NCBI GenBank assembly: GCA_964429815.1
Contig: CAYSCM010000001.1
Location: 384,001 to 448,000 of the forward strand
Direction of reading: 5' to 3'
DNA length: 64,000 nucleotides
DNA from: an uncultured Candidatus Saccharibacteria bacterium
Lineage (GTDB): Bacteria > Patescibacteriota > Minisyncoccia > Phycocordibacterales > CAYSCM01
Part shown: piece by piece, positions 7,292 through 59,813 of the stretch
Layout of the letters: every line of letters starts with the position of its first letter
Numbering within the stretch: position 1 is the stretch's first letter
Program-made: the position numbers and the translations under genes
The notes under the pieces: generated by a model
Database searches by the model: none
Told to the model about the DNA's origin: nothing
The model's input: only the letters and a program-made list of their open reading frames with translations

Positions 7292-9085
7292 ATGGACGCT
7301 ATACGTAATTTTTCCATTATCGCTCACATTGACCACGGCAAGTCGACGCTCGCCGACCGCTTTTTGGAGCTGACCGGCACCATTGAAAAGCGGAAGATGA
7401 AAGACCAAGTGCTCGACTCAATGGAGCTTGAACGGGAGCGCGGCATTACGATAAAAATGCAGCCAGTGCGCATGCGACATAGCATTGGAAGCGCCGAATA
7501 CGTGCTCAATCTTATCGACACACCCGGGCATATCGATTTCTCCTACGAAGTCTCGCGCGCCCTTCGCGCCGTCGAAGGTGCGCTCCTCCTAGTCGACGCA
7601 ACCCAGGGCGTGCAGGCACAAACGCTCACCACGCTCGGAATGGCGCGTGAACAAGGGCTCGTCATCGTACCGGTCGTCTCGAAGATAGATTCCCCACTTG
7701 CACGTTCCGATGAAGTAAAGCTCGAGCTTGCGAACCTTCTTAGCGTCTCGCCGGAGGATGTGCTGGCCGTTTCCGGGCGCACGGGGGAAGGAGTGAGAGA
7801 GCTTCTCGACGCCATCGTCGCGCGCATTCCGCCGCCCAGGTGCAAATTCAGCGGCAAGGACGATTTTCGCGGCCTGGTGTTCGATTTCAAGTACAGCAAC
7901 CATCGGGGCATCATTGTGTACTTGCGTGTGTTCGATGGAGAAGTGGCGAGGAATACTCCGCTTATGTTCCGTGCGGCGAATCGGAGCTTTGTCGCTGCCG
8001 AGGTCGGTATTTTCACTCCGGAAGAGTTGCCAAAAGAGGAGCTCACGGCAGGGGAGATAGGCTACATCGTCACTGGCATCAAAGAGCCAGGTGTCGCCTC
8101 CGTCGGCGACACCCTTGCACGAAGCCCTTCAAAGGTTCCGACACTTCCCGGCTATTTGACTCCTGCACCGGTGGTGTGGGCTTCGGTGTATCCCGAGAGC
8201 CAAGACGATTTCGATTATTTACGACAGGCGCTCCTGCGACTGCGGCTCTCCGATTCCTCGCTCTCCTACGAGGAGGAATCATCGGGGAATCTTGGCAGGG
8301 GTTTCCGATGCGGATTTCTCGGCATGCTCCACCTCGAGATCGTGACTGAGCGCCTCAAGCGTGAATTTAATCTCTCTCTTGTTATTACGACACCGACCAT
8401 CGCTTATGAGGTTGAGACGTCCGATAAAAAAATACAGACCATTTATTCGCCGGCGCGCTTTCCCGCTGACGGACGGATAGCGCAGATCCGGGAACCGTGG
8501 GTCAAAGTGACGCTCTTTTGCCCGCCGGAGTACGTAAGTAATGTCATGCAGCTCCTCTACGACCACGAAGCGCAGCTCGGGGATTCGGAAACCTGGAGCG
8601 ACGGGCGCACCAAGATGACGGTACGGATGCCGATGCGTGAGCTCATGCGCAACTTCTTCGATAAGATAAAAAGCGTTTCCTCCGGCTTCGCCTCGCTCTC
8701 CTACGAGATAGAGGGGATGCGGATCGCGGACGTCGTGAAGCTCGAGATTCTCGTCGCGGAGGAAGTCATCCCCGCGTTCTCGCGCATCGTCTCACGTAGG
8801 AAAGTTGAGCACGAGGCGCAAGACGCGGTGGAGAAGCTCCACAAAGTGCTCCCGCGACAGCTTTTCGTCACCAAAATCCAGGGAAAGGCGATGGGGCGCA
8901 TCATCGCATCGCGGACCCTCTCAGCGCTGCGCAAGGACGTCACAGGATACCTCTACGGCGGCGATATCACCCGTAAGATGAAACTCCTTGAAAAACAGAA
9001 AAAGGGAAAGAAAAAAATGAAAGAACACGGCCGCGTAAACATCCCGCAGGACGTGTTTCTCAAAATGATCAAGCAAGAGGAGTAG
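7292..9085 (+). CDS. lepA: Elongation factor 4 (LepA)
   Basis: 597 aa. GTPase G1 [11 protein letters not shown], the DTPGHIDF motif, and the LepA-specific C-terminal domain. Confidence 0.9.
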   Translation: MDAIRNFSIIAHIDHGKSTLADRFLELTGTIEKRKMKDQVLDSMELERERGITIKMQPVRMRHSIGSAEYVLNLIDTPGHIDFSYEVSRALRAVEGALLLVDATQGVQAQTLTTLGMAREQGLVIVPVVSKIDSPLARSDEVKLELANLLSVSPEDVLAVSGRTGEGVRELLDAIVARIPPPRCKFSGKDDFRGLVFDFKYSNHRGIIVYLRVFDGEVARNTPLMFRAANRSFVAAEVGIFTPEELPKEELTAGEIGYIVTGIKEPGVASVGDTLARSPSKVPTLPGYLTPAPVVWASVYPESQDDFDYLRQALLRLRLSDSSLSYEEESSGNLGRGFRCGFLGMLHLEIVTERLKREFNLSLVITTPTIAYEVETSDKKIQTIYSPARFPADGRIAQIREPWVKVTLFCPPEYVSNVMQLLYDHEAQLGDSETWSDGRTKMTVRMPMRELMRNFFDKIKSVSSGFASLSYEIEGMRIADVVKLEILVAEEVIPAFSRIVSRRKVEHEAQDAVEKLHKVLPRQLFVTKIQGKAMGRIIASRTLSALRKDVTGYLYGGDITRKMKLLEKQKKGKKKMKEHGRVNIPQDVFLKMIKQEE

Positions 9086-10493: not shown

Positions 10494-10566
10494 GCCGAGG
10501 TAGCTCAGTTGGTAGAGCATTTGTCTGAAGAACAAAGGGTCGCCGGTTCGATCCCGGCCCTCGGCA
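10494..10566 (+). tRNA. tRNA-Phe (anticodon GAA)
   Basis: gccgagg-ta-gctcagttggtagagc-a-tttgt-ctGAAga-acaaa-gggtc-gccgg-ttcgatc-ccggc-cctcggc-a. Canonical D and T arms. Confidence 0.9.
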
Positions 10567-10736
10567 CAAAATTGAAATTGCCTGGACTGGCTCCAGGCAA
10601 TTTCAACTTCTGATGAGGGATCGAACCTGGAAGGGGTCGGGAAACGGGAGTTTCCCGTCGAGGAAAACAGCGAGCTTGCGAGCGTTAGAAACCGCGGGTT
10701 TCTAAAGAGCTGCGCAGCAGCTCAGGAGTGAGATTC

Positions 10737-10761
10737 CCGGCCCTCGGCACAAAATTATGGG
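10737..10761. repeat. Direct repeat of the tRNA-Phe 3' end (second copy; first copy 10550-10573)
   Basis: gattcccggccctcggcacaaaatt versus tRNA 3' gatcccggccctcggcacaaaatt. 21 nt are identical, and 163 bp separate the copies. Confidence 0.8.
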
Positions 10762-10827: not shown

Positions 10828-11136
10828 ATGGACCATAGCAATCATCAAGTACAAGAGCGTAACCATCAGGCATGTGCCCACGGCATGTGTCTGAATCACG
10901 ACCCGCAATGGGAGAAGGCAGAAGAAAGGCACTTCGAGCCTCGCCCGATGTGGTTCGGCCTCTATCAGGTCTATTGGACCGTACGTTGCTGCGGAAAGGC
11001 GATGAGGCGGGTTAAGGAAGTGATCACTCAACGATGCGCGAAGTGCGGCAGGTTTGGCGAAAAAGTTACAAAGTGGGAAATTGCACTTTGCTCCTGCTGC
11101 GGTCATCACGTAGATATGGGCGGTAGCTCACTGTGA
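10828..11136 (+). CDS. Hypothetical Cys/His-rich small protein (possible zinc-binding)
   Basis: Start moved to ATG 10828 (MDHSNHQ...) behind a gaaaggaagg SD. 11 Cys in 102 aa including CxxC-like pairs (CAKCGRF, CSCCGHH). A terminator follows. Confidence 0.5.
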   Translation: MDHSNHQVQERNHQACAHGMCLNHDPQWEKAEERHFEPRPMWFGLYQVYWTVRCCGKAMRRVKEVITQRCAKCGRFGEKVTKWEIALCSCCGHHVDMGGSSL

Positions 11137-11142
11137 ACTCGA

Positions 11143-11168
11143 AGGCCCGGACGTTGTCCGGGCCTTTC
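11143..11168. terminator. Bidirectional rho-independent terminator
   Basis: ggcccggacgttgtccgggcc hairpin between convergent genes. Confidence 0.55.
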
Positions 11169-16621: not shown

Positions 16622-16640
16622 GTGCGCGGTAAGGGACTCG
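16622..16640. repeat. Direct repeat of the tRNA-Val 3' end (copy; tRNA copy at 16820-16838)
   Basis: 19-nt exact repeat gtgcgcggtaagggactcg, lying 179 bp downstream (in tRNA orientation) of the tRNA-Val 3' end. Confidence 0.8.
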
Positions 16641-16820
16641 GTCACGAATAATCTACTCGTCGTCGCTCGCAGATTTTCGCGACCCCGGCTCGGTATCAAA
16701 AGCTGCTGCTTTTGATATACCTGCGCCCTTCGAGTCCCTTATGGAAGCGACACTGGTCGCTTCCTCCCGCGCAACAACGAAATTAAAAAACGATGGCAGA
16801 AGCCATATTTTTTAATTTAG

Positions 16821-16893
16821 TGCGCGGTAAGGGACTCGAACCCCTGGCCCTTCCCACGTCAAGGGAATGCTCTACCAACTGAGCTAACCGCGC
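16821..16893 (-). tRNA. tRNA-Val (anticodon GAC)
   Basis: Reverse complement reads gcgcggt-ta-gctcagttggtagagc-a-ttccc-ttGACgt-gggaa...aggggttcgagtccctt-accgcgc-a. Confidence 0.85.
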
Positions 16894-17267: not shown

Positions 17268-17575
17268 TCGCTTCGCTCGGCCATGCCGCCGTCGCTCGTT
17301 CGGAAATGAAGGTGCACTTTCATTTCCCTCACTTCGCTAGACGATGGGGCCAAACACGGCGATTCTAGCATTTTCTCCTCCAAATGCTAGGATGACGTGC
17401 GTAGTTTATCAAACGGAGAGGTGGCTGAGTGGAGAAATCGCGAATAGCTTCGCGATTTCTCCGATCCGCGAAGCGGACGTGCCGATGTGAGCGAGCCTAC
17501 CGGCGAGCGAGAAGGCACGAGGTGGACGAACTTGTTCGACCCTCAGCTTCCATTTAGTATGGGCGAAGCCCATAT

Positions 17576-17662
17576 GGAGAGGTGGCTGAGTGGTCGAAAG
17601 CGGCGCCGTGCTAAGGCGTTAGGGGCGAAAGTCTCTCGTGGGTTCGAATCCCACCCTCTCCG
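17576..17662 (+). tRNA. tRNA-Ser (anticodon GCT), class II tRNA with a long variable arm
   Basis: ggagagg-tg-gctgagtggtcgaaagc-g-gcgcc-gtGCTaa-ggcgt, long variable arm, T-arm gtggg-ttcgaat-cccac, acceptor cctctcc-g. Confidence 0.85.
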
Positions 17663-17715
17663 CAAATGTTGCCTATAGGGACAGAACAATCTCGATTTCC
17701 TGTTATACTTTCGTT

Positions 17716-18441
17716 ATGGCGAACCTTGAAGGAGGACCCAATTCGAACGTCGAAAAAGAAAAGAAAATCCGAGAAGCAGAACAAGAGCTTGATTCAATCG
17801 ATCTGAATCCGGACAAACTTCGCCCTCTCTCGCCTGATGAGATCCACAGTCTTCATAGTAACCTCGCCGATCTTCTCTACTCAGCAGAAACAACTAGAAC
17901 GTTAGCTGACTTACCGGACTCTCCCGAAATTCGAGGGATCAGTGGGGAAGAACAAACCCGAATTGCGATTCAGAAACTCCATGAACGCGGTCAAGAGCTT
18001 CTTAAGAAGACCATTGACGACGAACGACTCCGTGCCGACCTGACTGAAAAAATTAGAGAGTATCATCGCTCAAACTGGCGTGAGGCTTTTGCGAATGAAA
18101 TCACCCAAGGACGAACGCCTTTCGGCGATGCGAGTAACTCGATTATTGAATTTTACCGAACCAAGGGGATCAATATTGAGAATCCGACGGAAGAGGACAT
18201 TGATAAGTATTTTGAGCGAAAAGAATACGACGCTGCAGCATTTGGCCTTGAATTTAAACGCCGACGTCGAAAACAGTTTGCGGATATGGATAACCAGAAG
18301 TTTTCCGATTTTCAAAGTTTATTTTGGCGGATGTTTAGGGTGCCTGATGGGCATGGATGGTTCACAACCCTTATGAACGGCAAGGCGTTTGTGCAGAAGC
18401 TCGACGAAATCAACGAAGCTCTGAAGCATAAAACTCCATAG
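17716..18441 (+). CDS. Hypothetical protein (island cargo)
   Basis: Start moved to MANLEGGPNS. The track's earlier start overlaps the tRNA-Ser 3' end. Charged and coiled-coil rich, with no known motif. Confidence 0.45.
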   Translation: MANLEGGPNSNVEKEKKIREAEQELDSIDLNPDKLRPLSPDEIHSLHSNLADLLYSAETTRTLADLPDSPEIRGISGEEQTRIAIQKLHERGQELLKKTIDDERLRADLTEKIREYHRSNWREAFANEITQGRTPFGDASNSIIEFYRTKGINIENPTEEDIDKYFERKEYDAAAFGLEFKRRRRKQFADMDNQKFSDFQSLFWRMFRVPDGHGWFTTLMNGKAFVQKLDEINEALKHKTP

Positions 18442-18773
18442 GGGCATAGGAGACTGTGTTTATTTATGCCAACACGATACCACTTTTTCTTTTTCTAGCC
18501 TGTATGGCCGATTTCCACGCCATGCAAAAGACAGATCTCTTTGATACACTCTAATCGCTCCATGAAGATTGGATCGCGTAGCTGTATCCGGGTTCGAACA
18601 TCGTTCAGGCCTGCCCGCTCGGACCGGTAAATGTCCAGATAGGTCAATTTTGAAAAAGAGCCTTATGAAATGGGCCTCTTTTTCGTCTCCCAAATTCGCC
18701 AAAAAGGTTCGAATCCTAACCAGTCTCTGCTTCCTCACCTTGGTGATGTATATTTAGGCCATCATTTTAATCT

Positions 18774-19427
18774 ATGGTGCCAACCGAGATTATCCTGGCT
18801 AGTGTAAGTTCTCCTTTTGAAATTGGCGCACAAATCGCCGAGATTATTATTGCGGCAGGGACAATTGTGGGGCTCGGGTTTTCGATATGGTTTTCGCGAA
18901 GAACTCTGCAACGATCGGATTGGAATTCAATAATGACTACCGCTCCCAGCATTGCGATCGAGTGTCGTAGTGATGGATTTTGGTTGAATGATAGGCCAAC
19001 TGCCGGAGGTTCTTGGGGAGAGCCCACACGCCATCTCGAACCTTCAGGAAAGTACGTCACCTTCGCGTTGAGATTTAGAATCTCAAATCAGGGGAGGGGT
19101 CTAGCACTTGCTATTAAGCCCGAAGTTTCTTGTAAGGCGAAAGCTTGGGTGGGAGGGATTCAGAATTTCCCTGTTTGGATGGGCACCGACAATGAGGACA
19201 AATCAGATCTTGCTGTTGACATACAGGAAGAGGACTTCAAATGGCTCGAACTGATGAAAAATCCTTTGCATTTGGCGCTGAGCATTAGCTACAAAAATGA
19301 CCAGGGCAACATTGCTTGCACCTCTAGGTGGTCGGCTAACCTGCAACCGTTTACAGTTAATGGAACTCGTCTTGAAATATGCCGGGACCGAATCCAAGAG
19401 CCTAGTATGCAAATTACTTATAGTTGA
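18774..19427 (+). CDS. Hypothetical membrane-anchored protein (island cargo), translationally coupled to the HNH gene
   Basis: 217 aa. N-terminal TM (IAEIIIAAGTIVGLGFSIWF). Its stop TGA overlaps the TTG start of the downstream gene (agTTGA). Confidence 0.5.
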   Translation: MVPTEIILASVSSPFEIGAQIAEIIIAAGTIVGLGFSIWFSRRTLQRSDWNSIMTTAPSIAIECRSDGFWLNDRPTAGGSWGEPTRHLEPSGKYVTFALRFRISNQGRGLALAIKPEVSCKAKAWVGGIQNFPVWMGTDNEDKSDLAVDIQEEDFKWLELMKNPLHLALSISYKNDQGNIACTSRWSANLQPFTVNGTRLEICRDRIQEPSMQITYS

Positions 19428-20107
19428 CTCGAAAAACTGTGAAATTCGAACTCAAAAAAATCAGAAGAAACACCCCAGATGACGAACTTCTTAGTGATCT
19501 GAAAACTACAGCAACAAAGTTAGGACAGCAATTTGTCACGAGGGCTCAGCAGGACCAATTTGGAAAATTTGATAGCTCGAACATGTCGAGGCGACTAGGG
19601 GGATGGGCAAAAGCTCATGAGCGTGCTGGTCTTAGGCTTGCACGTCATCAAAAGAGTCTGAAAGCTTCAGAAAACGAACTATTGCAAAATTTGGAAGAGG
19701 TTTGGACAAGGCTAGGACGACAACCGAATAGTCAGGATATGTTTGCTCCTATCTCACGCTTTGGCGTGAGTGCGTATAAACGCCACTTCGGCAGTTGGAT
19801 GAAAGCTCTCGAGAAGTTTGTTTCGATCGCAAATTTTGAGGGTGCTTTGACAAATGGATCGGATGAGGAGACTGTTGTTTCTGGGTCAAAGCGTAGGACA
19901 AAGCGAGAAGTCAATTGGAAGACGCGCTTTCTTGTAATGCGTCGGGATAATTTCAAATGCAAAAGTTGTGGACGGTCACCGGCTACGGACGCTGGAACTA
20001 TTCTCAATGTGGATCACATAAAGGCCTGGGCGAATGGGGGTGAAACTGTCCTAGACAATCTACAGACCCTATGTGCGGTCTGTAATCTGGGCAAAAGCAA
20101 TCTATAA
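19424..20107 (+). CDS. HNH endonuclease with N-terminal homing-endonuclease-associated repeats
   Basis: C-terminal HNH motif CKSCG...VDHIKAWANGGETVLDNLQTLCAVCNLGK. N-terminal repeats of the FGxxxxxxxRLGGWxxAxxxAGL type. Confidence 0.75.
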   Translation: MTRKTVKFELKKIRRNTPDDELLSDLKTTATKLGQQFVTRAQQDQFGKFDSSNMSRRLGGWAKAHERAGLRLARHQKSLKASENELLQNLEEVWTRLGRQPNSQDMFAPISRFGVSAYKRHFGSWMKALEKFVSIANFEGALTNGSDEETVVSGSKRRTKREVNWKTRFLVMRRDNFKCKSCGRSPATDAGTILNVDHIKAWANGGETVLDNLQTLCAVCNLGKSNL

Positions 20108-20199
20108 GGCATCCGGCGGCAACCCCATTCCTTCCTGTTTCAATATCCAGCGGATTTCCTCGCTCAATAATCACTCCTAGACAATCACACACGTTTTGG

Positions 20200-20517
20200 T
20201 TGTATGTGCTCAGAAGTACATTTGGCCATGCAAGGGAGTGTCTGCTAATGAGCATGAAACCTACCCGCATAACTTTTGAAAATCCAAAATACGGCAAGGT
20301 TGAGTGGACTTTGCCCGAACACGTTGAAACAGCGCTCGCCGCCAATGCTTCATCAAGTGCTGAGATGGAGGAGGCGGTGAAATTCTTAGCACGAACAACA
20401 GCCAAAGTGTTCGGCACGATTGTCTATTGCTTCACTCTAGGCAAATTGCCTGACCTCGACGCTTTCCTTGGTCAATTCGCGGAAAAAGGCGAAGCGAAGC
20501 CACCACCCTCTCACTGA
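20200..20517 (+). CDS. Hypothetical protein (island cargo)
   Basis: 105-aa ORF, with a likely start at ATG 20248 (MSMKPTRITFENPKYGKVEW...). A bidirectional terminator follows. Confidence 0.4.
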   Translation: MYVLRSTFGHARECLLMSMKPTRITFENPKYGKVEWTLPEHVETALAANASSSAEMEEAVKFLARTTAKVFGTIVYCFTLGKLPDLDAFLGQFAEKGEAKPPPSH

Positions 20518-20555
20518 GACTTTCAGGACGTACCCTAGCGGTACGTCCCTTCTTT

Positions 20556-20732
20556 TTAGTCAGACAGCTCCTTACCGTCTCGTCGGATTTCTTCCCGCAC
20601 CCACTCTCGAAGCCTCGCCTTTCTAACGGCTTCCTTTTCCAGTTTTCGCATCTCCTTCTCACTCTTGTCCGGCCAGTCAATTTTCACACCCTGGCGAGCG
20701 CAAACACGTTTGATAAGATGAAAGCGCTCCAT
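20556..20732 (-). CDS. Small basic protein (58 aa, possible DNA-binding)
   Basis: The 133-aa track ORF reads through the attR repeat. Only the C-terminal part from MERFHLIKRVCARQGVKIDWPDKSEKEMRKLEKEAVRKARLREWVREEIRRDGKELSD (Met codon at 20730-20732) is plausible. A truncated paralog (MERLECIKEICLLHGVEIGHTG*) with a conserved upstream leader lies at about 18480-18546. Confidence 0.4.
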   Translation of the reverse strand: MERFHLIKRVCARQGVKIDWPDKSEKEMRKLEKEAVRKARLREWVREEIRRDGKELSD

Positions 20733-21025
20733 GAACGATGGCTCGCGTAGCCATAGCCGGGTTCGAACGTCGTTCAGGCCTGCCCGCAACGGTTTGTAAG
20801 AATGCTCCGGTGGAGCATTCACGCAAAGCGTCGGATTTGTCGTGAGGTGGGATTCGAAAGGCGGAGCCCGACAAACGCAAAGCGTTTGTTTCGGGCGAGC
20901 CCGGGCAGGAGCCACTTTCCGCCGGAGGCGGATTAGTGAGCTGACGCCGAATCCCACCCTCTCCGCAGAAAGAAACTTCCGATTCGGACAGACCCGAGTA
21001 CTTCGGGAGTTAGTATAATGAATGT

Positions 21026-45516: not shown

Positions 45517-45703
45517 GTATGTGTATTCTACATCCTTGCCGTCACGAATAATTTGATTGCCGTCGAAGAGGACTCGGTCCTTACAGGACCAGTACCCCGA
45601 TTGGATAGTTTGCTTCGGCTCCTCGCAAACTATACTCAATCGGGCTTCGAGTCCTGCACGCAAACGCACCGCGTTTGCTCGGGCGGCACTCGCTGCGCTC
45701 GTG

Positions 45704-45776
45704 TCCGCCCAGCAGGACTCGAACCTGCGACCAATTGCTTAAGAGGCAACTGCTCTACCAACTGAGCTATGGGCGG
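45704..45776 (-). tRNA. tRNA-Lys (anticodon CTT)
   Basis: Reverse complement reads ccgccca-ta-gctcagttggtagagc-a-gttgc-ctCTTaa-gcaat-tggtc-gcagg-ttcgagt-cctgc-tgggcgg-a. Close to bacterial tRNA-Lys consensus. Confidence 0.85.
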
Positions 45777-45844
45777 AAAAACAGAAACGATAGTAGCACG
45801 CTCTTCCGTATGAATGAAGCCCCGCATTGCTGCGGGGCTTTAGC

Positions 45845-46187
45845 CTAGGCGGCCATGAGGTTTTCGATGAGGACGACACCATCCCGGTAGCGTGGGTGTG
45901 TGCTTTCGAGTCCCCAGGCATGTACCGGCGTCGAGTTCTGGTTGTCGCTCTTGAGGACGATTTTCTTCCCGGATTCGTCGGTGAGCGTAAGATGCCACTG
46001 GTCGACGATCCAGAACTTGATAAAGTTGATCTTCTGTTCCTTCGCGAACCGAACAAAGGCCTTGGGATCGCGCGAGGTGAATTCGAGGCGATTCTCGTGA
46101 ACGGCTCGATCCTCGTATTCGCCTTCCCAGCGCTGGAAGATAACGACATGCTTCAGCTCCGGTGCACCCACTTCCATATTCGGCATG
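45845..46187 (-). CDS. Hypothetical protein
   Basis: Start moved to MPNMEVGAPEL (113 aa). No motif recognised. Confidence 0.4.
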
Positions 46188-46263
46188 TTAGCCTCCTGTT
46201 TCTTGTTCCTGCCCGACTCTAGCAGGAAGCATTCTTTTTTCAATAGTGCCGGGGGTGGGGGTC

Positions 46264-46339
46264 GGCACATCCGGCTTCCAAAATGCCGAACACGGCGCCT
46301 GCCCGTCCGAAGCTTTAGCGAAGGAGGGAGGCCGCTTCG
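46264..46339. repeat. 76-bp inverted repeat, left copy (partner 47543-47619)
   Basis: cggcacatccggcttccaaaatgccgaacacggcgcctgcccgtccgaagctttagcgaaggagggaggccgcttcg is the reverse complement of 47543-47619, with one mismatch. Confidence 0.85.
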
Positions 46340-46470
46340 TTGACAATATAAAATTTTTCTTTGGCGGACTAATTCGAGAATGCGCGGAGCGTATACAATA
46401 TTGTTCTTTGAAAAAATAAAGAGCGCCCCATCGCTGGAGCGCTCTGTGTCGAGTTGAACGGCGCGAGCCG

Positions 46471-46810
46471 CTACTTGTCGGACTTTTCGGCCCCTTGCAG
46501 CTTGCAGTCGGCGTAGGCCCAGACGTAGCGGGTGCAGGTGAATGCGCCGGGTTTCTGGAGATATGCCGAGATGAACTTCGGCTCCTTGGTCTCGTCCTCC
46601 TTGCCGCCGCAGTCGAGCTTCATCACCACTTTGGTATTGGTGGCATCGTAGGATTTCGCGGTGCAGATCGCGTCACGAGCGACGACGGTATTGCTGACGA
46701 TAGCCGCGTGGACGCCCCACTGAATGCCACCGCTGACGGCGATGACGATGCCGAAGCCGAACAGCTGCTTCCACGTCATGACGAAGTTGCCGACGAATCG
46801 GTTCCTCATG
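46471..46810 (-). CDS. Hypothetical signal-anchored Cys-containing small protein (island cargo)
   Basis: Start at MRNRFVGNFVMTWKQLFGFGIVIAVSG (TM/signal). 4 Cys in the mature part. Its own terminator lies at about 46426-46455. Confidence 0.45.
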
Positions 46811-47310
46811 ACACCGCTCCCTGTGCTTGGTGGTTGAAGGTGATGATCGGGCAGACCTTCTGCTTGGCCGCCACGATGTATTGCCACACGACCTGCCAGA
46901 AGCCGGGACCCGTCGGCGCCGGAGCGGCGACCTTGGGCGGTTCCTTCTTCTTTTCAGGCTTGGGCGCGGGAGAAGGTTGCCGCCCCCACTCCTTCAGCCG
47001 TCGGAACAGCGCCTTCAGACCGATGATAACGCCGACGACGATTGCGAGTGCGCCGACGACATACGCATAGCCGGTGCCGCCCCAGAAGTAGATGGGTAGC
47101 GCCGTCAGTGCGGCGACACCCGAGCCGTACACCACTGCGTTGAGCAGCAGCACGAGCGGGCACCAGACCAGCATAACGCGCAGGAAATGGCACAAGTTTG
47201 TGCCGTCCCGATAGTGCCACGAGTCGTCGCCGCGGTCCTTGAACTCGTCCCAGACCGTCAAAGACCAGAAGAACCAACGGACGTACCACTGGCGTTTGTC
47301 CAACTCCATG
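46806..47310 (-). CDS. Hypothetical membrane protein (island cargo)
   Basis: Start at MELDKRQWY. 2-3 TM helices. Lys/Pro-rich tail (PSPAPKPEKKKEPPKVAAPAPTGP). Confidence 0.45.
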
Positions 47311-47542
47311 ATGTTTCTCCCCTTGAAAATTGGCCAAAACAAGCCAAGGATTGTGTACCACTTCCAAGCATCAGTGTCAAGTTGTGGCGAACTGTCGCAC
47401 CGAAAGAGTGTTTAGTAGCTAATCGTTCTGTATGCCAAAAAGTTTTCTTTTTCCTGACATAGATTCAGAGCGGGCTTCGCCCGCACCGAGTGAGAATGGT
47501 TTGCACCGATGTTTTTCTCCGGGCTCTTTTGCGGTTTTCGAG

Positions 47543-47619
47543 CGAAGCGGCCTCCCTCCTTCGCTAAAGCTTCGGACGGGCAGGCGCCGCGTTCGGCATT
47601 TTGGAAGCCGGATGTGCCG
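47543..47619. repeat. 76-bp inverted repeat, right copy
   Basis: Reverse complement of 46264-46339. Confidence 0.85.
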
Positions 47620-47809
47620 CGCCGCCGCCCTCGCCACCGACGGCGCGGCTGGTTCGAGTTATTTCTAGTATTCTGCACTATAGCAGGCAACTGCTTGCCT
47701 GCGTGTGGGCATCGAAGGCCGCAGTGATGTTTCGTTAGGAGACGAAACCGCGGGGCGGGGTCGCGACCGAGGCGAGCGGCGGCGAGCTCTGATTTGTAGT
47801 TTCAAACTT

Positions 47810-47894
47810 GGTGCCGGGGGTGGGGGTCGAACCCACATCTCTTGCGAGGCACGATTTTAAGTCGTGTGCGTATACCAATTCCGCCACCCCGGCG
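47810..47894 (-). tRNA. tRNA-Leu (anticodon TAA), class II, CCA encoded
   Basis: Reverse complement reads gccgggg-tg-gcggaattggtatacgc-a-cacga-ctTAAaa-tcgtg, long variable arm, gtggg-ttcgacc-cccac-ccccggc-a-cca. Confidence 0.85.
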
Positions 47895-56915: not shown

Positions 56916-57073
56916 TCAACCTACCAGAATAATTGTTTGACCCCAGGCAATCCGGCCTGGGGTTTTATGTTTTCTGATCTAAAACCATTCCGATATCGTT
57001 CCATACGGCGCACCAAAACAAAAACCCACAGCGAAAGGCTGTGGGTTTTTGTTTTGGCTCTATACTTAACTCA

Positions 57074-58366
57074 ATGAGCAAAAAGCTCGCCTTCTTTATA
57101 TTTATTGTGTCTGTCGTTGCCGTGTTGGTCGCGACAGCAGTGCAGACATCCGCGGCTCCCATCGTGCCGCAGGTATCCGCCCAGCCCGGCTCTGTTGAAG
57201 GCGGTCCGCTTCGCGCCTGCGACCTCCTCACCCTCTACAACAACATCCTCCGGTTCGGGATCTATGCTGCGACGGTTATTGCGACCCTCATGCTTACCTA
57301 CGCGGGCTTCCTCTACATCACCTCCTCGGCCAAGATAGGAAACATTGAAAAGGCACACGGGATTTTTACCAATGTCATCATCGGCTTCATCATTGTCCTC
57401 GTCGCGTGGCTTATCGTCTCGACTCTTTTGCGCGTGTTTACCGCGCAATCGAACTACAATCCGTTCGCCGCGATACAGTGCAATGTTGAAACACCGACGA
57501 CGACGCGCAACGTCACCCCTGCCGGATTTGAAACACAGTCCTATTCTGACTATCCCACCGGTCTTCCCGCCGGAGAGGTTCCGGTGTGCCTCACCGCCGA
57601 TAGCGACAGCAATTGCACCACCTACGCTTCCATCGGGCTGCAAGACTCGACCCTTCTTGAGTGCCAGGATCCCGGAGCAACCGGCGAGCAGTACTGTTGC
57701 TCGATGACTAACGCCGACGGCTCATGTAAGCTAGCGGTCACGGTCGGGCCAAATGGCCAACCTTCCTACAACAACGATGTGGGTGAGAATCTCTACGTAA
57801 ATCCGAATGTGGGGCTCACTGGCGTTGCCCCGACAGAAGGTATTTGCTCCCCGGATGCGCTCCAGAGCGTGTGGGGAGATAACGCCGCAACCGCTGGGTG
57901 CATATGCGCTTCAGAAAGTGGTGGGGGGCTCTACAACGGCATTACGGGCCCGCGCACGGACGTCATGCTCATCGATCAACAGCAGCCAGATGGTTTTTAT
58001 CCAGGTTTTTCGGCATGCCCATTCCAGCTCAACGTCACGAGCCTTCCGGCACAATATGGTGGATGTGGCGCGTATACCTGCAATACCAACACACAGGCGT
58101 GTATGATAAACGGTGTATTAACGCCACCCAATCCCACGAAATGCGATACAAATGTATCAGCCTATGAGCAAACCCTTGGATACAAGGAAGGGGCTCTGAG
58201 TCGAAACGGAGGCTATTGCCATGTGATAACCAATCAACCCGCCTTTAACTCCTGCGTGCAAAACCTTCTTACACCCGGGGGATGTGCCAAGGGAGCTCAA
58301 TATCTTCTTGCCAATGGCGGCTGGGCGCACTGGAGTACGAGCGCTAAAAAATGCCGAGCTATATGA
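57074..58366 (+). CDS. Pilin-like (TrbC/VirB2-type N-terminal module) protein with large Cys-rich extracellular C-terminal domain
   Basis: Signal peptide, then a two-TM module LLTLYNNILRFGIYAATVIATLMLTYAGFLYITSSAKIGNIEKAHGIFTNVIIGFIIVLVAWLIVSTLL. This matches the modules of 58920-59813 and the four small paralogs at 41.5-43 kb. The C-terminal ~300 aa contain more than 20 Cys. Confidence 0.55.
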   Translation: MSKKLAFFIFIVSVVAVLVATAVQTSAAPIVPQVSAQPGSVEGGPLRACDLLTLYNNILRFGIYAATVIATLMLTYAGFLYITSSAKIGNIEKAHGIFTNVIIGFIIVLVAWLIVSTLLRVFTAQSNYNPFAAIQCNVETPTTTRNVTPAGFETQSYSDYPTGLPAGEVPVCLTADSDSNCTTYASIGLQDSTLLECQDPGATGEQYCCSMTNADGSCKLAVTVGPNGQPSYNNDVGENLYVNPNVGLTGVAPTEGICSPDALQSVWGDNAATAGCICASESGGGLYNGITGPRTDVMLIDQQQPDGFYPGFSACPFQLNVTSLPAQYGGCGAYTCNTNTQACMINGVLTPPNPTKCDTNVSAYEQTLGYKEGALSRNGGYCHVITNQPAFNSCVQNLLTPGGCAKGAQYLLANGGWAHWSTSAKKCRAI

Positions 58367-58923
58367 GAAAACTATTACTCACCATCGTGCTCCTTCTTGT
58401 AGCGGTTGTCATCGGTGGTGGAATCTACGTATTCCTCGTTTCGCGCAGCACCCAGCCGGCAAGCGTACAAAACGAAACGGGAACTTCGCCTTTTGGCAGC
58501 GGCGCAGGAGCTATTCCTTCTGGCGGCAGCGGGCAAGGAAATACCACGTCCAGCCAAACCTCGGAGCAATTCATCGTCCTGGGAGCTGACGGTAGCATGA
58601 TTTCGGTAGCTGACTTCCGCTCAGAGCCGGGAGTGCAAGAGCTTTCTGACGGGAGCTATCGGCTCGGTCCATTCACCGGAAGCTCGACGTATCAAATTCT
58701 CTACTATGCCGCCGACAAGAGCTTCACGGTGACTCTTCTCGAGGAGCCACTGGGAGCCACGAGAGAGAGCGCAGAGCAGTACCTCATGAATGCTCTCCAA
58801 ATCGGCAAACCCCAGATGTGCAGATTGCGCTATGGTGTCTACGTGCCCATCAAGATCAGCCAGTTCTATGCGGCCACCAATCTCGGATTTAGTTTCTGTC
58901 CTCGCGCGATAAAACTACCATGA
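58363..58923 (+). CDS. Hypothetical membrane-anchored protein
   Basis: Start at MRKLLLTIVLLLVAVVIGGGIYVF (TM), then a Ser/Gly-rich linker and a small globular domain. Confidence 0.4.
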   Translation: MRKLLLTIVLLLVAVVIGGGIYVFLVSRSTQPASVQNETGTSPFGSGAGAIPSGGSGQGNTTSSQTSEQFIVLGADGSMISVADFRSEPGVQELSDGSYRLGPFTGSSTYQILYYAADKSFTVTLLEEPLGATRESAEQYLMNALQIGKPQMCRLRYGVYVPIKISQFYAATNLGFSFCPRAIKLP

Positions 58924-59813
58924 TACGCACCGCCGCAATCGCGCTCATTCTCTTGTGCGTCTTTGTCGTGACACCCTTTGCGCACGCGCAGAGTTTTGCT
59001 GGTCCCATAGTCCCCGATTGTGGTGGTGGCCCGTGCCAAGCCTGCCACCTCGTAAAGCTTGCGGACAACCTCCTGCGTTTCGGCATCTATCTGGCGACCG
59101 TCATTGCGACTCTAATCCTTGTCTATGCGGGTATTCTCTACATCACCTCAGCGAGCAACCCCAGCAATATTTCGAAAGCACACAGTTTATTTGGGAATGT
59201 CATTCTCGGTTTTATCATCATACTCATCGCTTGGATCGTCGTTGCTACGCTGCTGCGGGTTTTTCTCGGACAGGGCAAAGCTCTTCCGTGGGAGCAGCTC
59301 ACCTGTAACGTCACGGCGAATCCTGGCCCGACACCCTCGACCACGCCTCCAGGACTAACCGTAGCACCCCTTGCAGCTCCGCCAGGGGAAGGACAGCTCA
59401 CTGATCCGCAGGCGCGCCTTTCAATTGCCGCCTATAATGAGTCTCATCCTGACGCGCAGGTGTTAACTTGTGGTGATACAGCTTCCTGCCCGGCAATTCG
59501 CGACCGCGTCCTGTACGGCGGTATTGATAACGGCCTTCTCCAAAATGTCCTTGATACTACCTCTGCGGCCAATAGGGGGAACACCATTGTTACCTCCGCG
59601 GCAAATGAGCGTACTTCAGCTTCCAATCACCCAAGCGGCAATGCAATTGATATATACGGCACAAGCGCTTTCAATGCCTATGTTCAAAGCTTTCCGGCGG
59701 TCCCAGGTCTTTCAAACACATACCAGGTCGGGAATTATCGATACTGGTGGGAGCCATCAGGCACGGCTAATTCAACAGGGGACCATTGGCATATCTCAAA
59801 GACCGGACGTTGA
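58920..59813 (+). CDS. Pilin-like (TrbC/VirB2-type module) protein fused to a LAS/M15-family zinc peptidase-like domain
   Basis: N-terminal signal peptide plus two-TM module (LRFGIYLATVIATLILVYAGILYITSASNPSNISKAHSLFGNVILGFIIILIAWIVVATLL). C-terminal SNHPSGNAIDIYG ... GDHWHISK resembles the SxHxxGxAxD ... HxH zinc-binding signature of D-Ala-D-Ala peptidase-like (LAS) cell-wall hydrolases. Confidence 0.5.
   Translation: MIRTAAIALILLCVFVVTPFAHAQSFAGPIVPDCGGGPCQACHLVKLADNLLRFGIYLATVIATLILVYAGILYITSASNPSNISKAHSLFGNVILGFIIILIAWIVVATLLRVFLGQGKALPWEQLTCNVTANPGPTPSTTPPGLTVAPLAAPPGEGQLTDPQARLSIAAYNESHPDAQVLTCGDTASCPAIRDRVLYGGIDNGLLQNVLDTTSAANRGNTIVTSAANERTSASNHPSGNAIDIYGTSAFNAYVQSFPAVPGLSNTYQVGNYRYWWEPSGTANSTGDHWHISKTGR

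Follow-up and report, generated by a model that had tools for sequence, protein, structure and literature searches.

A 1.56-kb cassette at tRNA-Leu(UAA) in a Saccharibacteria genome: probably a decayed or non-autonomous tRNA-targeting integrative element

How does a two-gene operon come to lie between two copies of a transfer RNA (tRNA) 3′ end in the genome of an uncultured Candidatus Saccharibacteria bacterium, and is the segment that holds it mobile DNA? The segment lies behind the gene for tRNA-Leu(UAA) in a 64,000-nucleotide stretch of contig CAYSCM010000001.1 (hereafter the window, to which all positions refer unless another locus is named). It is bounded by a 19-bp direct repeat, contains a 76-bp inverted repeat and carries two genes, denoted B and A. 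An earlier note on this DNA had offered three explanations: a decayed integrative element, a large cassette resembling a miniature inverted-repeat transposable element (MITE), or an invertible promoter or gene segment. We assign a probability of about 0.65 to the reading that a phage-type moron is carried at 46246-47810 by a tRNA-targeting integrative element that is decayed or non-autonomous. The 1.56-kb element at tRNA-Leu is of a recognisable kind, from a little-studied group, and not a new principle.

Part of the evidence for this reading comes from copies of the cassette in related genomes. Including its non-coding leader, the window cassette is 82-87% identical at the DNA level to those of the loci L006, L007, L009 and L015. 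For the same pairs of Candidate Phyla Radiation (CPR) genomes, the proteins B and A are 86-93% and 76-80% identical, respectively, whereas the core proteins RbfA, IF-2, LepA and glutaredoxin share 42%, 47%, 65% and 67% identity. Since the cargo is far more conserved than these core proteins, the cassette is far younger than the genomes that carry it.

The tRNA gene next to the cassette changes from genome to genome. In the window the cassette is found behind tRNA-Leu(taa), in L015 behind tRNA-Val(tac), in L006 behind tRNA-Arg(cct), in L007 and L008 behind tRNA-Leu(tag) and in L032 behind tRNA-His(gtg); in these five contexts a tRNA on the same strand lies 117-500 bp upstream of B. The loci L001, L002 and L028 carry it behind tRNA-Arg(ccg), together with a recombinase and a helix-turn-helix (HTH) protein, and in further contexts the tRNA is downstream or there is none. 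One syntenic neighbourhood (tRNA-Arg(tct), tRNA-Val(tac), L19, tRNA-Leu(gag) and tRNA-His) is common to L015, L001 and L032, and the cassette occupies three different positions within it. The cargo thus recurs in other contexts and exceeds the host backbone in conservation.

The left end of the mobile DNA can be placed by comparing these copies. Counted from the tRNA 3′ end, 30 nt at +13 to +43 are kept at the same offset between the window and the tRNA-Val(tac) copy of L015, and a 20-nt stretch at +20 to +39 between the window and the tRNA-Arg(cct) copy of L006; both matches were better than all 1000 of 1000 shuffles. This fixed offset at three different tRNAs indicates that the mobile DNA starts within ~12 nt of the tRNA 3′ end. 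Collectively, the varied tRNA contexts, the conservation, the link to a recombinase and the presence in phages, the last two of which are described below, demonstrate that the cargo is mobile.

In the 64-kb window the sequence GTGCCGGGGGTGGGGGTCG is present in exactly two copies (46246-46264 and 47811-47829), with none expected from 100 shuffles. On the complementary strand this sequence forms the 3′ part of tRNA-Leu(taa), from the CGA of the T-loop through the first C of CCA. Integrases that target tRNA genes leave their attachment (att) sites, attL and attR, at the part of the tRNA between the T-loop and the 3′ end, and the 19-bp repeat sits in this classical position of an att duplication. 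Both marks of a tRNA-integrated island are therefore seen, an intact tRNA at one boundary and a direct repeat of its 3′ segment at the other. The repeat had already been described in the earlier note, in which its right copy was placed one base off; both this repeat and the inverted repeat discussed below were confirmed, with no match of either type expected by chance.

The cargo has the make-up of a phage accessory unit. Gene B encodes a protein with hydrophobic stretches at about residues 37-73 and 77-105 and a Lys/Pro-rich linker, as judged from hydropathy, and gene A a protein with four invariant cysteines (C49, C67, C92 and C102). The two genes overlap by their stop and start codons (ATGA), and A always follows B. 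The overlapping minus-strand pair had been recognised before, with lengths of 168 and 113 residues; the pair stands, and the lengths are 167 and 112. B matched PHROG 944, annotated as 'membrane protein' in the category moron / host takeover, and a profile search gave 637 representatives of its family at 50% clustering, with named members from Minisyncoccia, Kaiserbacteria and one metagenome-assembled genome labelled Saccharibacteria, which places the host of the window among the Patescibacteria (CPR). The homology search proposed earlier thus gave an answer for B; for A, searches of Pfam, PHROGs, PADLOC and the PDB all came back negative. B fell into no Pfam family above the cut-off and had no tblastn match in GenBank phages, and PADLOC returned nothing for the cargo as a whole. 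The AlphaFold models of the two proteins were too poor to be used in fold searches or to suggest a function (predicted local distance difference test scores of 59 for B and 41 for A).

B-A pairs are also present in IMG/VR phage contigs; in one of them, L016, genes for a portal protein and for the large subunit of a terminase (E=2e-118) follow 3-5 kb downstream of the pair. Upstream of B we located a sigma-70-type promoter, composed of TTGACA (47380-47375), a 17-nt spacer ending in TGG, and TACACA (47357-47352). The pattern TTGACA-17-TAnAnn is kept upstream of B in at least 10 loci; a consensus scan had missed it because the -10 element lacks the final T. An intrinsic terminator, whose 11-bp stem is followed by TTATTTTTT, closes the operon. 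A moron is a self-contained unit within a prophage that has its own promoter and terminator. With its own promoter, two genes and a terminator, and with homologues in phage genomes, the B-A operon fits this definition. The cargo is predicted to be expressed, probably constitutively, and to have its role at the cell membrane; superinfection exclusion and envelope modification would be examples of such a role. It differs from described phage morons, with which it shares the sigma-70 promoter, the intrinsic terminator and the company of terminase and portal genes in phage contigs, in that the window unit stands alone in a bacterial chromosome and not inside a prophage.

One type of relative still carries a recombinase. 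In L001, L002 and L028 the order is tRNA-Arg(ccg), an inverted repeat of ~155 bp, a serine recombinase, the HTH protein (67 residues), B, A and the second inverted repeat. The recombinase of these loci, with 536 residues, is of the large serine type and contains Resolvase, Recombinase and Zn_ribbon_recom domains; among the loci compared, such an enzyme is found in these three only. The terminal inverted repeats of L001 lie at 8106-8256 and 10992-11147 of that locus, the proximal one flush with the end of tRNA-Arg(ccg), and the recombinase open reading frame (ORF) of this type runs through the proximal repeat into the tRNA. The B proteins of these loci are 70% identical to that of the window, and the cargo is 73% identical at the nucleotide level. 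The locus L007 combines the window-type operon with end pieces of the L001 type, including a 36-nt match to L001 (28 nt invariant, alignment A3) and a hairpin GTTTTYTTTG..CAAAGAAAAC of the L001 type (p=0.009). This mixture of both end types suggests that the end types recombine within one element family. As in Tn4451/TnpX-type elements and serine-integrase prophages, the recombinase of L001, L002 and L028 is encoded at one end of the element beside the attachment site. Known half-sites of large serine recombinases measure ~25 bp; the terminal inverted repeats of ~155 bp in the L001 type are far longer, and the window copy differs further in lacking the recombinase.

Taken together, the varied tRNA contexts, the conservation, the serine recombinase in one type of relative, the phage copies and the repeat in att position support the first of the earlier explanations, a decayed integrative element. 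The cassette would have arrived by site-specific recombination at the tRNA end, with a recombinase that was subsequently lost or was never part of it, and may now be fixed or movable only in trans. The coordinates of the features are compiled in Table 1.

Table 1. Features of the tRNA-Leu(UAA) element and of further tRNA 3′-end repeats in the window
Feature	Position	Strand	Basis
tRNA-Leu(UAA) gene, intact; proposed integration target	47809..47893	-	ARAGORN; Rfam tRNA, 59.2 bits
Proximal 19-bp direct-repeat copy, attL-like, inside the tRNA (T-loop to first C of CCA)	47811..47829	-	zero chance matches expected
Conserved left-end module, +13 to +43 nt past the tRNA 3′ end	47766..47796	-	1000/1000 dinucleotide shuffles; alignment A7
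Window-specific block, absent from L006 and L015	47619..47765	+	alignments A6 and A7; blastn; pattern unique in window
Right (tRNA-proximal) arm of the 76-bp inverted repeat	47543..47618	.	
Sigma-70-type promoter of the operon	47352..47380	-	read from sequence; upstream-region comparison
Gene B, 167-residue membrane protein, PHROG 944	46806..47309	-	phrog_944, E=2.4e-12; hydropathy
Gene A, 112 residues, N-terminal hydrophobic helix, four Cys	46471..46809	-	alignment A2
Intrinsic terminator	46410..46445	-	stem 46445-46420 and T tract
Left (distal) arm; inner part of the cassette right-end module; abuts the distal direct repeat	46264..46339	.	
Distal 19-bp tRNA-end copy, attR-like; next bases TA, not CA	46246..46264	-	sequence; repeat search
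tRNA-Phe(gaa) repeat, 22 bp	10552-10573 = 10735-10756		
tRNA-Val(gac) repeat, 19 bp	16820-16838 = 16622-16640		
tRNA-Ser(gct) repeat, 20 bp	17645-17664 = 20948-20967		

Several observations weigh against this assignment. No tRNA-end direct repeat was found at the tRNAs beside the relatives' copies of the cassette, and the repeat and the cassette in the window may therefore stem from separate events. The proximal arm of the inverted repeat is separated from the attL-like repeat by 192 bp instead of being flush with it. With a G+C content of 0.584 as compared to 0.551 +/- 0.029, the island is not distinguished by its composition. Between the L001 repeats and the window arms, the inner ends have only a motif in common (CCTCCCTCC..CTTCGG). 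The crossover left by a large serine recombinase normally measures just 2 bp, so that an enzyme of the L001 type may not have made the 19-bp repeat, unless the element carries a replacement for the tRNA end. No recombinase gene is present in the island, which encodes only B and A, and none was recognised by Pfam among 34 window proteins, a set that leaves out three large ORFs and the small ORFs; a tblastn search of the window with the L001 recombinase gave no match, and neither its gene nor the HTH gene has left a trace there. The earlier remark that a recombinase is missing is thus borne out, and the integrase that an intact integrated island would contain is not seen. Finally, exact-pattern scans matched neither the predicted empty-site junction 46245/47830 (...TTTCAATAGTGCCGGGGGTGGGGGTCGAACCC...) in metagenomes nor the predicted circle junction 47810/46265 (...CTTGGTGCCGGGGGTGGGGGTCGGCACATCC...) in viral contigs. 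The gene that adjoins the distal repeat (45845-46186, minus strand, 113 residues, with a promoter-like site at 46243-46216) has no homologue except itself in 5.8 billion protein clusters, and because this neighbour is an ORFan no orthologous empty locus was found, no close relative of the host being available for the comparison.

We compared the element with two described kinds of tRNA-associated mobile DNA. Islander-type tRNA islands and prophage remnants likewise have an intact tRNA at one end, an exact copy of its part from the T-loop to the 3′ end at the other and foreign cargo between. The window element departs from them in the lack of an integrase, a length of 1.56 kb, a single two-gene cargo and an internal 76-bp inverted duplication, and the copies of the cassette in relatives differ in having no direct repeat. 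In lifestyle, the described system that comes nearest is the tycheposon of Prochlorococcus, which uses several tRNA targets, carries cargo between partial tRNAs and inhabits a streamlined genome (Hackl et al., bioRxiv 10.1101/2020.12.28.424599). Tycheposons also leave degenerate remnants and extra partial tRNAs at tRNA loci, and a minority use a large serine recombinase (bioRxiv 10.1101/2020.12.28.424599). We note a likeness only and claim no membership; the window element has neither replication module nor integrase, and its host belongs to another phylum.

The second conspicuous feature of the locus is the inverted repeat. Read in reverse complement, the 75-mer 46265-46339 matches 47543-47617 with a single mismatch (A at 46292 versus G), and none is expected by chance. 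A shared G at 46264 brings the near-perfect arms to 76 nt (46264-46339 and 47543-47618), and a weaker extension reaches 88 nt at 93%. The 76-bp repeat with one mismatch reported before is accordingly correct, except that its right arm ends at 47618 and not at 47619. A third copy of the arm is absent from the 64-kb window, and an exact 33-mer of the arm has no match across 185,579 GTDB genomes. Three further ideas about the arms were discarded. Six matches to 17-mers of the arm in viral contigs are due to chance, as the similarity goes no further. A structured RNA is not supported, with Rfam finding only tRNAs and fold z-scores ranging from -0.5 to -1.2 for both arms on both strands. Nor is there a sign of a genome-wide repeat family, the motif GCCAAAGAAAA being not enriched and the outer module unique in the window.

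That the inverted repeat, or the whole resemblance, is a product of chance or of assembly is extremely improbable. Inverted chimeras can arise in metagenome assemblies; against this, no matches are expected from shuffles, the source contig reaches about 500 kb, and an independent Logan unitig (L011; 1263 bp, 100% identical) has its two ends exactly 30 nt within the arms. Breaks at this depth are what a k=31 graph produces when the reads contain both arms; the unitig is uninformative about orientation.

Comparison with L006 and L015 suggests how the arms came about. The proximal arm belongs to a longer module (47543 to about 47690), of which it forms the inner part. In L006 (3796-3885) and L015 (7027-7064) this module occurs only once, distal to the operon and oriented as the left arm of the window, and blastn aligns these two segments with window 47585-47683 in opposite relative orientation. 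Relative to both loci the window has ~210 bp extra, consisting of the inverted module copy and a spacer (alignment A7). Three parts make up the window-specific block 47619-47765: the outer portion of the right-end module, copied in inverted orientation (GCTGGTTCG..GTATTCTGCAC at 47648-47678), a stretch rich in C that resembles a tRNA 3′ end (about 47619-47637), and ~75 nt of unique spacer with a hairpin. On the proximal side L006 keeps only ~15-17 nt of the inner end of the arm, and L015 has no clear counterpart. The two window arms are 99% identical to each other, as compared to about 75-87% between orthologous right-end modules, and the long inverted repeat is on this ground recent and specific to the lineage. 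We therefore infer from these alignments that the 76-bp inverted repeat, which the closest relatives lack, represents a recent inverted duplication of the right-end module of the cassette. A short ancestral inverted repeat of ~15-17 bp (CGRAGCGGCYYCC), which can be seen in L006 and L015, would have been extended by inverted duplication of the module toward the tRNA, and probably seeded the duplication, for example through template switching. At present the distal module is cut exactly at the outer end of the arm (..GGATGTGC) and is followed by the tRNA-Leu 3′ end; beyond the proximal arm there is instead the C-rich tRNA-3′-end-like stretch, only about 60% similar. The event that left the tRNA-Leu attR may then have trimmed the distal module exactly at the arm boundary. 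The earlier description of an 'unusual hybrid architecture' is right in that both types of repeat are present. The att-type repeat and the inverted-repeat cassette are, however, better read as two separate layers, which they probably are, than as one hybrid device.

This history also bears on whether the 1.2-kb segment comprising promoter, B, A and terminator is flipped between the 76-bp repeats, by RecA or a site-specific invertase, as a form of phase variation. Long, near-identical inverted repeats on both sides would suit such a switch, the serine recombinase of L001 inside a repeat-bounded element recalls Hin, and a flip would bring back the collinear arrangement of L006 and L015, in which B, A and the full right-end module follow one another. 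The segment contains its promoter as well as its terminator, however, so that inversion would change no obvious expression output, there is no recombinase nearby, the left side is already collinear with L006 and L015 in the present orientation, and the long repeat is absent from the closest relatives. The Hin and Gin systems likewise have inverted repeats around a segment of ~1 kb; their repeats measure 26-34 bp, as opposed to arms of 76-155 bp here, and the window shows neither an outward promoter, nor alternative gene ends, nor an invertase, that is, no promoter or gene end whose effect would depend on orientation. We consider an invertible segment quite unlikely, and the corresponding suggestion of the earlier note has no support here.

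The position of the arms bears in a similar way on transposon-like readings. In MITEs and insertion sequences, terminal repeats abut the target duplication at both ends. Here the distal arm does and the proximal arm, 192 bp away, does not; the suggestion of a large MITE-like cassette is thus only partly apt, and no further copy of the arm was found in the window, among GTDB genomes by the exact 33-mer or in viral contigs. Casposons have terminal inverted repeats, 14-15-bp duplications and tRNA 3′-end targets. A casposon-like transposon, bounded by terminal inverted repeats and inserted at the tRNA 3′ end with a long target-site duplication instead of by conservative site-specific integration, would suit the contact between distal arm and direct repeat. 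The gap at the proximal arm and the lack of a Cas1 integrase or transposase gene in the island speak against it, as do the tRNA-end repeats found in this window: their lengths of 19-22 bp and their differing ends fit att blocks that rebuild a tRNA and not a fixed staggered cut. We regard this origin as very unlikely.

The tRNA-Leu gene is one of 4 among the 13 tRNA genes of the window with an exact 19-22-bp duplication of the 3′ end, as compared to 0 of ~50 tRNAs in the loci of relatives. In three of the four the repeat starts at the CGA of the T-loop, and that of tRNA-Phe starts 3 nt later; three end at the discriminator or the first base of CCA, and that of tRNA-Phe 6 nt past the tRNA. An element that rebuilds the tRNA on integration is expected to leave an identity block of this form. 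The inserts themselves are diverse. That at tRNA-Phe is 161 bp long, gene-less and hairpin-rich, with an inverted 11-nt T-arm copy at about 10617-10627. The tRNA-Val insert (179 bp) has an encoded CCA in the distal copy and none in the gene copy, and holds an inverted, hairpin-interrupted copy of its own tRNA end (16730-16743 and onward). The tRNA-Ser island (17665-20947, 3.3 kb, G+C content 0.475) encodes an HNH homing endonuclease (19424-20107); its three further ORFs have no Pfam match and no integrase is among its genes. About 90 nt ahead of its distal repeat there is a T-arm copy of 13 nt in inverted orientation, with the spacing seen at tRNA-Val. At 17410-17432, 161 nt upstream of the tRNA-Ser(gct) gene and beside a 21-bp hairpin, 23 nt repeat the 5′ end of this tRNA (91%). 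A common att arm among the four inserts was considered and rejected: the Leu-Ser comparison gave p=0.12, and the lower value for Ser-Val (p=0.014) was due to T-arm sequence.

These duplications raise the question of whether the locus is still active, as a non-autonomous MITE-like or miniature integrative element. Its repeats would then be functional recombination sites, at which a recombinase acting in trans, from a gene elsewhere in the ~0.5-Mb genome or from a phage, would excise, invert or re-integrate the cassette. The near-perfect arms with their 99% identity, the many tRNA sites occupied in relatives and the four exact 3′-end duplications within 64 kb, which suggest recent or ongoing activity, are in line with this idea. 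So is the behaviour of the recombinase-bearing loci L001, L002 and L028, since all three independent assemblies break at or just past the distal inverted repeat. On the other hand, no recombinase is seen in the window, no other copy of the arm exists in the window, the GTDB scan or the viral contigs, the scans for empty site and circle junction were negative, and the four inserts share no demonstrable arm. We consider a currently active element unlikely, and retain the decayed or non-autonomous integrative element as the preferred reading.

Further features of the cassette copies and of the window are recorded here as side observations. In L009, L010 and L027 a tRNA-Lys(ctt) lies on the same strand 105 nt after the operon; in the window a tRNA-Lys(ctt) also follows the operon, beyond the inverted-repeat arm, the direct repeat and the ORFan gene. 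Between L009 (825-1842) and the window (45702-47364), RbfA and IF-2 are found on opposite sides of the cassette. Distant B-A copies are flanked by short repeats that are unrelated in sequence, some of them terminator hairpins: a 24-bp direct repeat in L003 (9866-9889/12023-12046), a 22-bp palindrome in L005 (59-80/1224-1245) and a 33-bp direct repeat in L014 (4040-4072/5082-5114) surround the operon. Elsewhere in the window, two adjacent proteins (57041-58366 and 58920-59813) contain type IV secretion system pilin domains (PF18895).

A broader proposal, which we put forward as speculative and rather doubtful, is that an undescribed family of elements targeting tRNA 3′ ends may exist in CPR bacteria and their phages. 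Its traits would be a moron distributed among at least six tRNAs at a fixed offset, a large serine recombinase and inverted repeats of 76-155 bp; the 4 of 13 scarred tRNAs, each with an inverted T-arm copy, would reflect ongoing activity, and the mini-island would be mobilisable in trans.

The genomes of Patescibacteria are tiny, and the group is considered poor in mobile elements. If the locus is merely a decayed islet, the result is an ordinary one. A phage-shared cassette that hops between tRNA genes and leaves scars devoid of a recombinase would show how accessory membrane functions spread in Patescibacteria, and would point to a serine recombinase with relaxed, tRNA-directed targeting.

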